DNA of 64,000 nt from an uncultured Acidobacteriota bacterium. Lineage in GTDB: Bacteria; Acidobacteriota; Vicinamibacteria; Vicinamibacterales; Fen-181. The translations under genes and the position numbers were made by a program. How positions within the stretch are numbered: position 1 is the first letter of the stretch; every line of letters begins with the position of its first letter. The stretch lies in the NCBI GenBank assembly GCA_963698725.1, contig CAVORY010000004.1:19951-83950 (forward strand). The letters run 5' to 3'. This document shows positions 1,109 through 6,826 of the stretch, in pieces. The notes under the pieces are model-generated. The model saw nothing but the letters and a program-made list of their open reading frames with translations, was not told the DNA's origin and did not search any database.

Positions 1109-1320
1109 AGAAGACAGAATTCAGAAGCCAGAAGCCAGAAGCCAGAAGCCAGAAGACAGAAGACAGAATCCAGAAGACAGAAGATAGAAGAGGCCTGTCA
1201 CGCGATCACACTGTCACGCTGAGCGAGCCGCGAGCCCCTTGGCGCGCCGAAGCCCCTCGGGCGAAGGCGGCTGAGCCCTGAGCCCTGAGCCGTGAGCCTT
1301 GAGCCGTAAGCCGCAGGCCG
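1109..1320. repeat. Composite intergenic repeat element, copy A: (CAGAAGN)n block, core, (TGAGCCN)n block
   Basis: 1109-1190 holds about 11 tandem heptamers (cagaaga/cagaagc/tagaaga). The core 1191-1272 contains ctgtcacgctgagcgagcc and gccgaagcccctcgggcgaaggcggc. 1273-1320 holds heptamers tgagccc/tgagccg/tgagcct. Confidence 0.9.
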
Positions 1321-1321
1321 G

Positions 1322-2608
1322 CTATTCTGCCAGCAGCCGCGCGATCAGCGCTGAGAGGCGCGCCTCGTTCGCCTCGTCGTAGCCGACCATGATCAGGCGG
1401 ATGACTCCCTTCTTGTCGATGATCTGGATCTGCGGGATCCCGCCCACCTTGTAGTTCGCGTCGTTGACGTCGCGCGCACCGGCCTGGCCCGTGACGCGGT
1501 TGCCCACGGCAATCGGGAACACGATCCCATGTTTCGGGAAGTACTCGCCGATCGCCTTCAGTTCGTCGGTCGGGGAGAGATTCCGCTGGCTCTCAAAGTA
1601 GCCCCACAGCTGGGTGGCCATCACGACGCGGAAGCCCTTCGGGCCGAAAGCGTTTGCGAGCCGGACGAGGCCCGGGTAGCTTTCGCGGCACGGGCCGCAC
1701 CAGTGCGCGGTGAACTCGAGCAGCGTCACGTGACCCGGCATTTCCAGGCGGCCGCTCGCGGGTGTCGCCTGCAGCCACTGCGGCGCCTCCAAGGCGGCGG
1801 CAGGCCGGCCGACCAGTTCGTACCGCTCGAGCGCGGGTCTGACCTGCGCGTCGACGCCTTCGATGGCGCCCAGGTCCCTGAGCGCTGTCCTCAGAAGGTC
1901 GAGCGCCTTCGGCGTCTGCTCCTGGCCCGCGTAGGCCTCGGCTGCGTTGACGTACGCCGCCACGATCGTCCGGACGACCGGCGTACGCTGCTCGGGCGTC
2001 AGAAGGTGGCCGAGCTCGATGATCTTCGCCGAGTGCTTCAGAATGCCCGCGTCGATGTCGTCGGCGCGGTAATAGCCGTTGAGCAGCCCGTGCCCTTCGA
2101 TCTTCTCGCGGGCGGACGATTCGGGCAGGGCGTCCAGCGCATCGACATACTTCTCGGCCTTCGCGTTGCGCTCGTCCGACTTCGGCTGCCGCATCACCAG
2201 CCGCGTCGCCGTGACCAGCGCGGCGGCTCGTCTGGCGGGGTCGCCGGTCGTCGCGTCGAGCGCGCGCTCGATCGCCTTGTCGGCCAGATCCGGCTGCGAC
2301 GCCTCGATGTAGAGCTCGGCGAGCGGCGCGAGCTGGGCGGCCGGGAGCGCGTCGAGCGCGATTCGCGCGATGCAGGCCCTCGCGAATTCGACCTTCTCCC
2401 GCTGCAGCGCCTGGTACTTCTCGGAGGTCATCGGAGGCGGAACCTCCTTCATCCGGGCGGTCAGGAACGACCGCGTGTTCGCCAGGCACGACGATGGCGT
2501 GGCTGGCGAGGCCGGCGCCGCACGCTCCTGGGTGGCGAGGGGCTGGGCGCAGAGGAGCAGGCCGAGAGCCAGGGCGGCGAAGGCACGGTTCAGCATGTTG
2601 GCGATCAT
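1322..2608 (-). CDS. Secreted TlpA/ResA-like thiol-disulfide oxidoreductase with a helical N-terminal domain
   Basis: ORF 1322..2947 trimmed to the internal ATG (comp. 2606-2608), giving the signal-like MIANMLNRAFAALALGLLLCAQPLA. C-terminal FTAHWCGPCRESYPGL (WCxxC) and GGIPQIQIIDKKG are typical of the redoxin/TlpA family. Confidence 0.75.
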   Translation of the reverse strand: MIANMLNRAFAALALGLLLCAQPLATQERAAPASPATPSSCLANTRSFLTARMKEVPPPMTSEKYQALQREKVEFARACIARIALDALPAAQLAPLAELYIEASQPDLADKAIERALDATTGDPARRAAALVTATRLVMRQPKSDERNAKAEKYVDALDALPESSAREKIEGHGLLNGYYRADDIDAGILKHSAKIIELGHLLTPEQRTPVVRTIVAAYVNAAEAYAGQEQTPKALDLLRTALRDLGAIEGVDAQVRPALERYELVGRPAAALEAPQWLQATPASGRLEMPGHVTLLEFTAHWCGPCRESYPGLVRLANAFGPKGFRVVMATQLWGYFESQRNLSPTDELKAIGEYFPKHGIVFPIAVGNRVTGQAGARDVNDANYKVGGIPQIQIIDKKGVIRLIMVGYDEANEARLSALIARLLAE

Positions 2609-2693
2609 GTACCACGAAACGCGTCGAAGCGCGCAGAGAAATCCGGGCGGACGTATACTACCTGCCGTCCGGCGAGACGGAGGCCCGAACGCG

Positions 2694-5214: not shown

Positions 5215-5441
5215 GAGAAGCTAGAATCCAGAATCCAGAATCCAGAATTCAGAAGACGACAGAAGACAGAAGACAGAAGCAAGTCAGACGGTCACGACGT
5301 CACGCTGATCGAGCCTTGAGCCCTGAGCCTTGAGCCCTGAGCCGTGAGCCGTGAGCCCTGAGCCCTGAGCCGTGAGCCCTGAGCCCTGAGCCTTGAGCCT
5401 TGAGCCGTGAGCCGTGAGCCCTGATCCTTGAGCCTTGAGCC
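5215..5441. repeat. Composite intergenic repeat element, copy C
   Basis: ctagaat/ccagaat/tcagaag/aagacag heptamers span 5215-5283. A short core follows: gtcagacggtcacgacgtcacgctgatcgagcc. About 18 tandem tgagccc/tgagcct/tgagccg heptamers then run to 5441. Confidence 0.9.
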
Positions 5442-5442
5442 G

Positions 5443-6528
5443 TCACGCCGAAGGGTCGGGCGATTCAGCAGCTCGCTGCTCGGCCAGGGCCTCCTCGGCG
5501 AACTCGAACAGCGCCAGCACCAGGGCGATGATCACCGGGCCGAGGAAGATGCCGATCGCGCCGAATGCGCCGATCCCGCCCAGCAGACCGATGAACACCG
5601 GCAAGGTGGTGATCTTCGCCCGGCTCGAGATGAACAGCGGCCGGATGACGTTGTCGGCCGACGAGACCACCGCCACGCACCAGATGACCAGGAACGCCGC
5701 CGCGCCGACGCGACCGGTGAGGCCCAGGTAGAGCGCGGTGGGCACCCACACGATTGTCGTGCCGACGAGGGGGATGATCGACGCGACCGTCGCGAGCACC
5801 GCAAAGACGACGGCCGACGGCAGGCCGATCAGGGCGAACGCGATTCCGACCAGCGTCCCCTGCGCCAGCGCCGTCACCAGCGACCCGAGGACGATGGCCT
5901 GGATCACGTTCGAGAGATGGGTGAGCAGCAGGTCCTTCCGGCGATTGTCGAGCGGGACCAGGCTCATCGTCCGGGCCACCATCAGCTCGCCGTCGCGCAG
6001 GAAGAAGAAGAGCAGGAACAGCGCGAGGATGATGGCCATGAGGGTCCCGACGACCGACGCGAACAGCGACCCGCCGACCGAGAGCACCGACTCGATGACC
6101 TGCTGGCCGGCGGAGACAAGCGAGCTCGCGATCTGATCGGATTGCACCGGCAGGATCGACTCGACCCATTGGATCGCCTGCTCGACGGCCGGGATCTGCA
6201 GGACGTCCGAGGGCCTCTGAATGTGATGCTCGGCGGCGCTCGTCTGCGCGCGGCCCGCGAGGTCCGCGGCCTGCCTGCCGAACACGATCCCCAGGACGGT
6301 CGCCGGCACCACCAGGACGAGGAGCGACGCGAGGGTCAGCGCCAGCGCCGCCCAGGTCTTCCGTCCGCGAAAGGCCGACCGCAGCCGCCGGTTGAGCGGG
6401 AACAGCATCAGGGCCAGCAGCGCCGCCCACAGGATCGGACCGACGAACGGCCGGAGGATGAGCAGCACCGCGGCGCCCAGCACCAGCGCCGTAACCAGGC
6501 CGAAGACGCGGGGGTAGAAGGTGGACAT
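5443..6528 (-). CDS. AI-2E (PerM/UPF0118) family transporter
   Basis: 361-aa polytopic membrane protein with LFFFLRDGE, IPLVGTTIVWVPTALYL and SSADNVIRPLFIS, matching the family pattern. Confidence 0.8.
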   Translation of the reverse strand: MSTFYPRVFGLVTALVLGAAVLLILRPFVGPILWAALLALMLFPLNRRLRSAFRGRKTWAALALTLASLLVLVVPATVLGIVFGRQAADLAGRAQTSAAEHHIQRPSDVLQIPAVEQAIQWVESILPVQSDQIASSLVSAGQQVIESVLSVGGSLFASVVGTLMAIILALFLLFFFLRDGELMVARTMSLVPLDNRRKDLLLTHLSNVIQAIVLGSLVTALAQGTLVGIAFALIGLPSAVVFAVLATVASIIPLVGTTIVWVPTALYLGLTGRVGAAAFLVIWCVAVVSSADNVIRPLFISSRAKITTLPVFIGLLGGIGAFGAIGIFLGPVIIALVLALFEFAEEALAEQRAAESPDPSA

Positions 6529-6826
6529 AGAATTCAGAAGCCAGAATTCAGAAGACAGAAGACAGAAGACAGAAGACAGAAGACAGAATCAGACTGTCAC
6601 GCTGTCACGCTGTCACGCAGACAGAGCCGCCCGCCGCGAGTCGCCAGCCGCCCGTCCCAGGTCCTGAGCCCTGAGCCCTGAGCCTTGAGCCTTGAGCCCT
6701 GAGCCTTGAGCCTTGAGCCCTGCGCCCTGAGCCTTGAGCCTTGAGCCCTGCGCCCTGAGCCTTGAGCCTTGCGCCCTGAGCCTTGAGCCTTGAGCCCTGC
6801 GCCCTGAGCCTTGAGCCCTGCGCCCT
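6529..6826. repeat. Composite intergenic repeat element, copy D (largest)
   Basis: 6529-6593 holds cagaaga-type heptamers. The core contains three copies of ctgtcacg. 6664-6826 holds about 23 tandem heptamers tgagccc/tgagcct/tgcgccc, ending in the DUF362 stop codon. Confidence 0.9.

Follow-up and report, generated by a model that had tools for sequence, protein, structure and literature searches.

What are the arrays of seven-nucleotide repeats that fill gaps between genes in some bacterial genomes, and what determines where and in which orientation they lie? The question is raised by a 64,000-nt stretch of an uncultured Acidobacteriota bacterium (Vicinamibacterales, Fen-181; assembly GCA_963698725.1, contig CAVORY010000004.1, positions 19,951 to 83,950 of the forward strand), here termed the window and numbered from its first letter, in which four intergenic gaps within 6 kb are occupied by composite elements (A to D) made of two different heptamer arrays and a short core. 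The elements are, in our view, probably slippage-driven mosaics of simple-sequence repeats with 7-nt and some 8-nt units, which invade operon junctions and are filtered there by orientation; a function for them is unproven.

Heptamer arrays at gene boundaries

The layout of the elements was confirmed by direct reading of positions 1000–7000 and by Tandem Repeats Finder (TRF). In each of the four gaps (Table 1), a CAGAAGA-type and a TGAGCCN-type heptamer array are joined through a short core, the four-copy, two-array architecture first recognized in the initial annotation. The former array, CAGAAGA on the + strand and TCTTCTG when read on the other, is referred to as T-type and the latter (TGAGCCN/GGGCTCA) as G-type. 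The TRF arrays of the window, whose G+C content is 65–72%, have a period of 7, 3–23 copies and 86–96% unit identity, with a higher-order period of 21 nt in several of them. Elements A and B match each other in inverted orientation over 184 nt at 87%, their cores being nearly identical, so that the earlier description of B as the reverse complement of A, core included, was correct, and it likewise follows from the sequence that TGA recurs in every frame of the TGAGCCC strand while the opposite strand stays open.

Arrays of this kind are far more frequent in the window than expected by chance and are confined to intergenic DNA. Three-unit probes with up to 3 mismatches gave 33 (CAGAAGA) and 49 (TGAGCCC) matches, with 0 expected from 100 dinucleotide-preserving shuffles. 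With rough gene calls, none of the genes contained an array of period 7 or 8, and arrays covered 975 of the 9353 intergenic bases, being present in 10 of the 33 gaps of at least 30 nt. Among the further copies listed in the initial annotation, those at 15863, 19936, 21325 and 40458 are real, the one at 59119 belongs to another heptamer family (GCTGCCA with GCCTACG) and the one at 63217 amounts to about two units only. The same annotation had placed elements in every gap between 1.1 and 6.8 kb and between tandem, convergent and divergent genes alike; the divergent gap 2610–2695 has no element, and the second statement is overstated for the window, where no divergent gap contains a heptamer array. 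A depletion in divergent gaps was considered and set aside, being only mild (19%, against 36% for tandem and 41% for convergent gaps) among loci that had been chosen for having arrays. At their outer edges the arrays can reach into coding sequence, as shown for the 3' end of DUF362 (window 6825–6850; L001 ~9880–9900; L178), whose C-terminus varies with the array among near-identical relatives (YEGSEPGT, YEGSGLKS or YEGSGLRA), and for the Dus stop codon, which in several relatives is the TAG of a TAGAAGA unit. On the practical side, arrays yield false open reading frame (ORF) extensions, altered gene C-termini and broken or collapsed metagenome assemblies of abundant soil Acidobacteriota.

The orientation of an array is not arbitrary but tracks the polarity of the gene boundary beside it, a rule that the initial annotation had missed. 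The strand that reads 5' to 3' towards the adjacent boundary is pyrimidine-rich with more C than G; on the sense strand, arrays are purine- and G-rich after a stop (GGGCTCA, CAGAAGA) and pyrimidine- and C-rich before a start (TCTTCTG, TGAGCCC, CTGCCAG). In a set of 32 high-GC loci with 64 arrays lying at most 45 nt from a gene end, this rule was kept in 57 arrays (p=8e-11), with 36 of 40 at stops and 21 of 24 at starts. Among the arrays of these 32 loci that are not of the TCTTCTG type, C exceeded G in 23 and was below it in 3. The rule was also seen at 73 loci from other phyla (G+C below 0.58), where 31 of 37 arrays at stops fitted it (p=4e-5), starts being too few and too poorly called in this set for a verdict. 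Array-free flanks of the window showed no asymmetry (pyrimidine 0.50 and 0.51). The apparent reversal of the copies at 19936 and 21327 is explained by the same rule. A replication-strand bias was considered and rejected: seven of eight window elements share the same absolute orientation, but the gene-boundary rule explains this better. The same polarity arrangement has been reported for GGGAATC repeats of Xanthomonas and GGGGAYT repeats of Nostoc (Rehm et al., PMC4692102), a report that is here extended, with strong statistical backing, to other unit sequences and other phyla.

The same junctions in related genomes

The window PerM and Dus have no identical protein on record, and homologues were used instead. 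PerM homologues number in the hundreds and are metagenomic, the only named ones being from metagenome-assembled genomes (MAGs) of Vicinamibacterales and Methylomirabilota with 57–59% identity; MAGs labelled Vicinamibacterales in GTDB contain the same kinds of array. The homologues thus point to Acidobacteriota, and by these comparisons an assignment to Vicinamibacterales is probable. Syntenic loci were ranked by PerM DNA identity (L178, 99.1%; L004, 95.9%; L005, 91.4%; L001, 89.9%; L002, 88.1%; L003, 84.6%) and more distant ones by protein identity (L340, 78%; L339, 71%; L341, 59%). In seven genomes, the DUF362–PerM and PerM–Dus junctions followed one grammar: on the transcribed strand, the stop codon is succeeded by a G-rich heptamer array and then by a variable core, which has GTGAC octamers at its end, and an NNTTCTG array follows before the ATG.

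Within this grammar both the number and the identity of the units differ. Junction D has 23 G-type units in the window and 7, 4, 0, 4, 2 and 2 in the relatives; specifically, 4 to 7 were found in the two contigs with 99.1% and 95.9% identity in PerM, the 99.1% contig having 4, although L004, L005 and L178 look like short-read contigs in which an assembler may collapse arrays, so that the size of the strain-level polymorphism is uncertain. Junction C has 17 G-type units in the window and 3, 2 and 0 in relatives. The window and L004, L005 and L178 also differ in unique sequence, namely a replaced core and an inserted hairpin element, and these differences cannot be accounted for by assembly collapse. 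The stop-proximal family itself has been swapped for (GCTGGCA)n in L005 and L001, for (GTAGGCG)n in L003 and, at the CorA junction, for (GGCTGAC)n in L228, and two such replacement families also occur within the window (59116–59216 and 20198–20231). Element A is absent from the orthologous gap of L003, and the RuvA–RuvB gap contains octamer arrays in the window and heptamer arrays in L002 and L003. These comparisons of orthologous sequence indicate that arrays are gained, lost, swapped and resized while the flanking genes barely change, and they bear out the earlier suggestion of a slippage or recombination hot spot.

The operon provides a natural experiment. In L339, a 3.2-Mb contig, DUF362, PerM and Dus lie 6 and 2 nt apart (9995–10000 and 11120–11121), whereas the matching junctions of the window measure 296 nt (6529–6824) and 235 nt (5208–5442) and consist almost wholly of repeats; in L340 the corresponding gaps are 66 and 64 nt. 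The compact arrangement in a 71% relative marks the arrays as dispensable insertions and, judged from gene order, they are not needed to express the flanking genes.

Table 1. Heptamer arrays of the window and the genes around elements A to D. Positions are those of the window; T-type, CAGAAGA/TCTTCTG; G-type, TGAGCCN/GGGCTCA.
Feature	Position	Strand	Composition and context
Element A	1108-1313	-	between thioredoxin-like gene stop (1322-2609, -) and ATG at 1100-1102 (-)
A, T-type array	1108-1191		x12; CAGAAGA/CAGAAGC/CAGAATY (+ strand); - strand reads TCTTCTG/GCTTCTG/AATTCTG
A, core	1192-1270		79 nt
A, G-type array	1271-1313		TGAGCCN x6 (GGGCTCA on - strand)
Element B	3930-4123	+	convergent gap, CorA stop (3926) to Dus stop (4119-4121)
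B, G-type array	3930-3951		GGGCTCA x3
B, core	3952-4030		GATCAGCGTGAC at 3998-4009
B, T-type array	4031-4123		TCTTCTA/G x12-13; overlaps Dus stop codon
Element C	5216-5441	-	between PerM stop (5443) and Dus ATG (5207)
C, T-type array	5216-5280
C, junction core	~5281-5310		~30 nt; GATCAGCGTGAC at 5299-5310
C, G-type array	5311-5441		TGAGCCN x18.7; first unit includes PerM stop codon
Element D	6528-6826	-	between DUF362 stop (6825) and PerM ATG (6528)
D, T-type array	6528-6593		touches ATG
D, octamer array	6594-6618		(CTGTCACG)x3
D, core	6619-6662		44 nt
D, G-type array	6663-6826		TGAGCCN x23.4; 28-nt higher-order period
Two short TGAGCCC arrays	15863-15889, 15940-15962	+	RuvB-FabH gap, either side of REP-like hairpin (~50 nt, 15886-15940)
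CAGAAGA-type array	19938-19996	-	begins straight after stop at 19934; adjoining core has GATCAGCGTGAC at 20021-20032 (- strand)
CTGCCAG array	20198-20231	+	C>G on + strand; ~27 nt upstream of start at 20258; start-proximal arm, same gap as 19938 array
Core-less composite	21327-21412	+	(CAGAAGC)x5 after stop at 21307, then (TGAGCCC)x4, GGGAG Shine-Dalgarno, ATG at 21418
TGAGCCY array	40448-40511	+	abuts stop of - strand gene 40510-41856
Different heptamer pair	59116-59216		(GCTGCCA)x5 at 59116-59151 and (GCCTACG)x3.6 at 59190-59216, flanking half of REP-like hairpin
Gene ending at 1100		-
Thioredoxin-like gene	1322-2609	-
CorA	2696-3926	+
Dus	4119-5207	-
AI-2E/PerM transporter	5443-6528	-
DUF362	6825-7925	-

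Origin of the arrays and competing explanations

The composition of the arrays was examined in a census of 128 G-type units and of 198 T-type units, the latter drawn from the window together with 14 loci that are related to it or labelled Vicinamibacterales. In the T-type unit NNTTCTG, positions 3–7 (TTCTG) are 96–100% conserved and positions 1–2 vary (TC 83, GC 29, GA 25, AA 18, CC 12), while in the G-type unit NGGCTCA positions 2–7 are 89–98% conserved and position 1 is variable (G 52%, A 27%, C 20%). The confinement of unit variation to positions 1–2 is new here, and so is a conserved junction motif, GATCAGCGTGAC, with five matches in the window at up to 1 mismatch against 0.7 expected, four of which lie 5' of a T-type array. 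In the lineage of the window, TCTTCTG units are found beside the core and GC, GA and AA variants beside the gene, TC units making up 18 of 23 units in core-side halves and 6 of 23 in gene-side halves (p=9e-4), and the order of the variants is the same across six window arrays. A universal gradient of unit variants was rejected, the order being reversed in other Vicinamibacterales MAGs. Taken with the core common to A and B, the recurrence of one junction motif and of one order of unit variants points to copying of modules between gaps within the lineage; the same regularities leave room for sequence-specific recognition.

At gene starts, T-type arrays end 0–15 nt before the ATGs at 1100, 5207 and 6528, where GGAG, GAGG and AGGA are absent. 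A TCTTCTG-type array precedes the PerM ATG in 8 of 8 loci (78–99% identity) and the Dus ATG in 7 of 8; at these array-preceded PerM and Dus starts, the sequences read showed no Shine-Dalgarno motif. Other genes of the window have Shine-Dalgarno sequences or -10 boxes 6–8 nt before the ATG. Across the window, a Shine-Dalgarno-like motif is present in only ~45% of the called genes, and TACAAT or TATACT boxes lie 6–8 nt before the starts at 7925 (-), 52269 (-), 59965 (-) and 35829 (+), suggesting leaderless mRNAs.

In the mechanism proposed here, short heptamer seeds would lengthen and shorten through slipped-strand mispairing and unequal recombination, at times by several units at once, and block duplications are suggested by the 28-nt super-repeats in element D. 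Whole modules, consisting of an array and a GATCAGCGTGAC-containing core, may in addition spread from gap to gap through recombination or gene conversion, and the very short junctions of the DUF362–PerM–Dus operon, together with neighbouring ones, would thereby be inflated to 190–300 nt. Since 7-nt units shift the reading frame and cannot survive in genes, arrays would extend as far as the start and stop codons or even take these in, and selection would act against arrays within coding sequence and against those in the orientation that a given gene end disfavours. A T-type array abutting the ATG may then act as an unstructured pyrimidine leader for translation in place of a Shine-Dalgarno sequence. 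Besides the uncertain size of the strain-level polymorphism, the following points weigh against this reading. For the polarity rule, selection on mRNA is no more than a presumed cause; the position-specific conservation within units is not predicted by pure neutral slippage with point mutation and may indicate recognition of a specific sequence or a hot spot of mutation; and the consistent presence of TCTTCTG-type arrays before the PerM and Dus ATGs could reflect function rather than inheritance. Together, the compact relative, the polarity rule and the conservation within units turn the vague term 'microsatellite' into testable hypotheses, namely loading of Rho or S1, directional growth and a specific binder.

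The most serious of the other explanations, although we regard it as unlikely, is that the arrays are punctuation at the RNA level, pyrimidine-rich, G-poor and unstructured tracts serving as landing pads on transcripts that enter genes, either for ribosomal protein S1 and ribosome standby in Shine-Dalgarno-independent initiation or for Rho, which would insulate genes against read-in and antisense transcription. This would agree with a polarity that holds at both gene ends and is missing from array-free flanks, with the T-type arrays close to three window ATGs and their recurrence at the PerM and Dus junctions of relatives, and with a unit whose conserved 5–6 nt and 1–2 variable positions resemble a recognition unit; S1 or ribosome standby has also been raised for TAACTGA repeats (PMC4679880). 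Absence of structure fits as well, the elements being less structured than shuffled sequences (whole elements A–C have fold z-scores of +1.6, +1.1 and -1.4, and five core segments +0.4 to +2.0) and the T arrays unpaired in centroid folds. The 21-nt junction of the core-less element at 21355–21375 has a z-score of -1.2. A structured RNA was rejected on these fold scores; the elements also had no match in Rfam, where the only window match at the gathering threshold is one tRNA (22388–22461). Against RNA-level punctuation stand the relative whose genes are 2–6 nt apart with no array, the lack of a T-type array before Dus in L340, the occurrence of the same arrays before a normal Shine-Dalgarno sequence or -10 box in other genomes, the transcriptional polarity that a Rho loading site right before an operon-internal cistron would cause, and the equal frequency of permuted heptamers. 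A bolder version, in which polarity is a general cross-phylum rule made by function, inbound RNA having to cross a G-poor pyrimidine tract that loads Rho (or S1 and ribosomes), appears less probable again; if true, arrays would insulate gene borders and serve there as checkpoints coupled to translation, they would be evolvable and tunable in length, and TTCTG and GGCTCA would be the core sequences recognised. It is improbable that the arrays act instead on DNA, with a nucleoid-associated or regulatory protein recognising TTCTG or GGCTCA cooperatively at 7-bp spacing, three units equalling two helical turns. The conservation by position within units, the 21-nt periods and the conserved GATCAGCGTGAC motif and GTGAC octamers would suit such a protein; the exchange of array families at one junction between relatives, unit numbers spanning 2 to 23 and the dispensability of the arrays would not, and binding to double-stranded DNA does not readily explain a polarity set by gene ends.

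A non-autonomous mobile element of the repetitive extragenic palindrome (REP)/bacterial interspersed mosaic element (BIME) or miniature inverted-repeat transposable element (MITE) type, moved by a transposase and with the heptamer arrays as its arms, is if anything slightly more improbable. It would account for the nearly identical, inverted cores of A and B, for presence or absence differing between relatives, for a genuine REP-like hairpin inserted inside G-type arrays in L004, L178 and L005 and for the palindromic composites at some metagenome loci, in which a core lies between a purine and a pyrimidine array. All inverted repeats found, however, are between different elements, neither terminal inverted repeats nor target-site duplications occur within an element, the ends are undefined, with arrays running to the gene boundary, the cores differ among C, D and A/B, and the direct-repeat units fold worse than shuffles. 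A MITE or REP identity was therefore rejected, in line with the initial annotation, in which no described family of this kind had been recognized. That annotation had also doubted that the elements are simply terminators, and intrinsic terminators formed by a core hairpin with the T-rich array as U-tract are indeed very unlikely. Two weak hairpin-plus-T-tract matches with 5-bp stems occur in B and D where the core meets the T array, and palindromic composites elsewhere look like bidirectional terminators, but the scanned region has 5 terminator-like sites against 2.0 +/- 1.4 in shuffles, which is near background, the cores fold less stably than shuffles and a T array that ends at the next ATG leaves no space in which a promoter could lie. 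The scan gave no sigma-70-like promoter, and an extracytoplasmic function (ECF)-type or leaderless promoter, sought by eye in the GTGAC/TCTGAT part of the core, was rejected because its spacing was inconsistent across elements. Least probable of all is an assembly artefact, a possibility admitted in the initial annotation. Long tandem arrays are hard to assemble and unit numbers may be wrong in any one assembly; yet at least seven independent metagenome assemblies have this architecture at these junctions, it recurs there in independent JGI and ENA contigs that look short- and long-read-like by naming and frameshift pattern, and arrays are also present in isolate genomes of other phyla. For the existence of the arrays this explanation is refuted, and only the unit counts are uncertain.

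Several other repeats were observed. The REP-like hairpin (~50 nt, DNA fold z -2.4 at 15886–15940) has partial copies at ~20085–20125 and 59155–59185 and sits inside G-type arrays in L004 (20–70 and 1310–1360), L178 and L005 (2800–2862), junctions at which the window lacks it. It has a 9-mer, GCTCAGGGC, in common with (GGGCTCA)n, and on the strength of this shared word the 9-mer may be the seed of the (GGGCTCA)n array. Palindromic composites were found in other lineages, in metagenome contigs (L174, L143, L167) and at GTDB loci (L011, L018, L032, L101), where a short core separates a purine-strand heptamer array from its pyrimidine-strand complement and the purine arm comes first in all pairs read; they resemble an oversized bidirectional terminator. 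A second abundant repeat family with 8-nt and 16-nt units (ATCTTGCG / CGCAAGAT, TGCGAACG), reaching 22 units in one relative, is present at 9233–9290, 14724–14837 and 35306–35386 of the window and in L003 (13810–13905) and L340 (2697–2925, 3579–3699, 13663–13869 and 17956–18109), mostly beside gene starts or in divergent gaps and often as inverted sets. A tandem array of 20-nt units (GTCGGGACTGACGATGAAGG, 6.8 copies, 95% matches) at 34178–34329 fills a convergent gap (gene ends 34178 + and 34333 -), and an in-frame 18-nt coding repeat (AACATCGTCTGGGGCGTG, 6.3 copies, 96%) at 18973–19085 encodes NIVWGV hexapeptides in gene 17884–19272.

Relation to known intergenic repeats

To our knowledge, intergenic heptamer arrays of bacteria have been noted since 1990 and are still unexplained. 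The arrays described here are intergenic heptanucleotide simple-sequence repeats of the long simple sequence repeat (LSSR) or short tandemly repeated repetitive (STRR) sequence type, a known class found here in a new lineage, rather than the lineage-specific, undescribed class proposed in the initial annotation (PMC4679880, PMC4692102). As cited in these two papers, the LSSRs of Mrazek et al. 2007 have 5–11-nt units with heptanucleotides predominant and, to the extent that they are outlined there, share with the present arrays tandem 7-nt units beyond chance length, an almost exclusively intergenic location, a scattered phylogeny and polymerase slippage as the proposed origin. The window and its relatives show a head-to-tail period of 7, no arrays in called genes and copy numbers that vary between close relatives, the last with the caveat of short-read collapse. 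Compared with the LSSRs as outlined, the lineage (Vicinamibacterales, Acidobacteriota) and the units are new, and the arrays form two-array mosaics with a conserved junction motif. A literature search gave no description of heptamer arrays in this lineage, and a search on the unit sequences returned only unrelated eukaryotic primer sequences.

Heptamer arrays are common as a class and not by virtue of a particular unit. Exact (TCTTCTG)3 was found in more than 118 GTDB genomes of 31–71% G+C, against 0.3 expected by chance, including Bacteroidales, Nitrospirota, Planctomycetota, Cyanobacteria, Gammaproteobacteria and Acidobacteriota, often with other heptamer arrays nearby. In a viral collection, (TCTTCTG)3 was present at 10 loci, three permuted heptamers of the same composition at 10, 28 and 38, and (TGAGCCC)3 at 9; with permuted heptamers as common or commoner in viral contigs, TCTTCTG was rejected as a special cross-phylum signal. 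A metagenome scan with the pattern AGCGTGAC...TTCTGNNTTCTG returned mostly chance loci, with real arrays in nine matches at eight loci.

A close parallel in arrangement is provided by GGGAATC of Xanthomonas and GGGGA(C/T)T of Nostoc, intergenic heptamers located 0–50 bp from ORF ends, in which the G-rich strand is the coding one behind stop codons and the non-coding one ahead of start codons (Rehm et al. 2015, PMC4692102). Besides the polarity rule, the present arrays have in common with them the occupation of the same junctions in related species, extensive variation in length and sequence, and inverted pairs between convergent genes. They differ in their units, in the lack of conservation of runs of at least three G (position 1 of NGGCTCA is G in 52% of 128 units) and in having a partner array, TCTTCTG, that is not G-rich, along with other array families that have no G3 run. 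As the variable position of GGGCTCA is the third G, G-quadruplex potential is not conserved here, and selection for G-quadruplexes was rejected.

TAACTGA direct repeats have been described in marine Beggiatoaceae, some Cyanobacteria and Bacteroidetes (MacGregor 2015, PMC4679880). Shared features are arrays within a few nt of start codons that have no Shine-Dalgarno sequence, the spread across phyla and the absence of a common function among downstream genes, whereas here the unit is another one, arrays are equally frequent at stops in the opposite orientation and a second heptamer family is paired with the first. No TAACTGA array was found in the TRF output of the window. STRR units include CCCCAGT, TTGGTCA and CAACAGT, and none of these was found in the same output. 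The present arrays resemble STRRs in that several heptamer families are dispersed over many intergenic loci of one genome, and differ from them in unit sequences and lineage. Heptamers of this type are known from heterocystous cyanobacteria (Calothrix PCC 7601), as cited in PMC4692102.

A last comparison is with the BIME/REP sequences. We know of no link between heptamer arrays and REP-associated tyrosine transposases (RAYTs). BIME/REP sequences are mosaic extragenic elements of enterobacteria, built from REP units that, as imperfect palindromes, fold into stable hairpins. The units described here differ in being direct repeats that fold worse than shuffled sequence; like BIME/REP sequences, they build extragenic mosaics located after genes and between cistrons, with module numbers that vary between strains.

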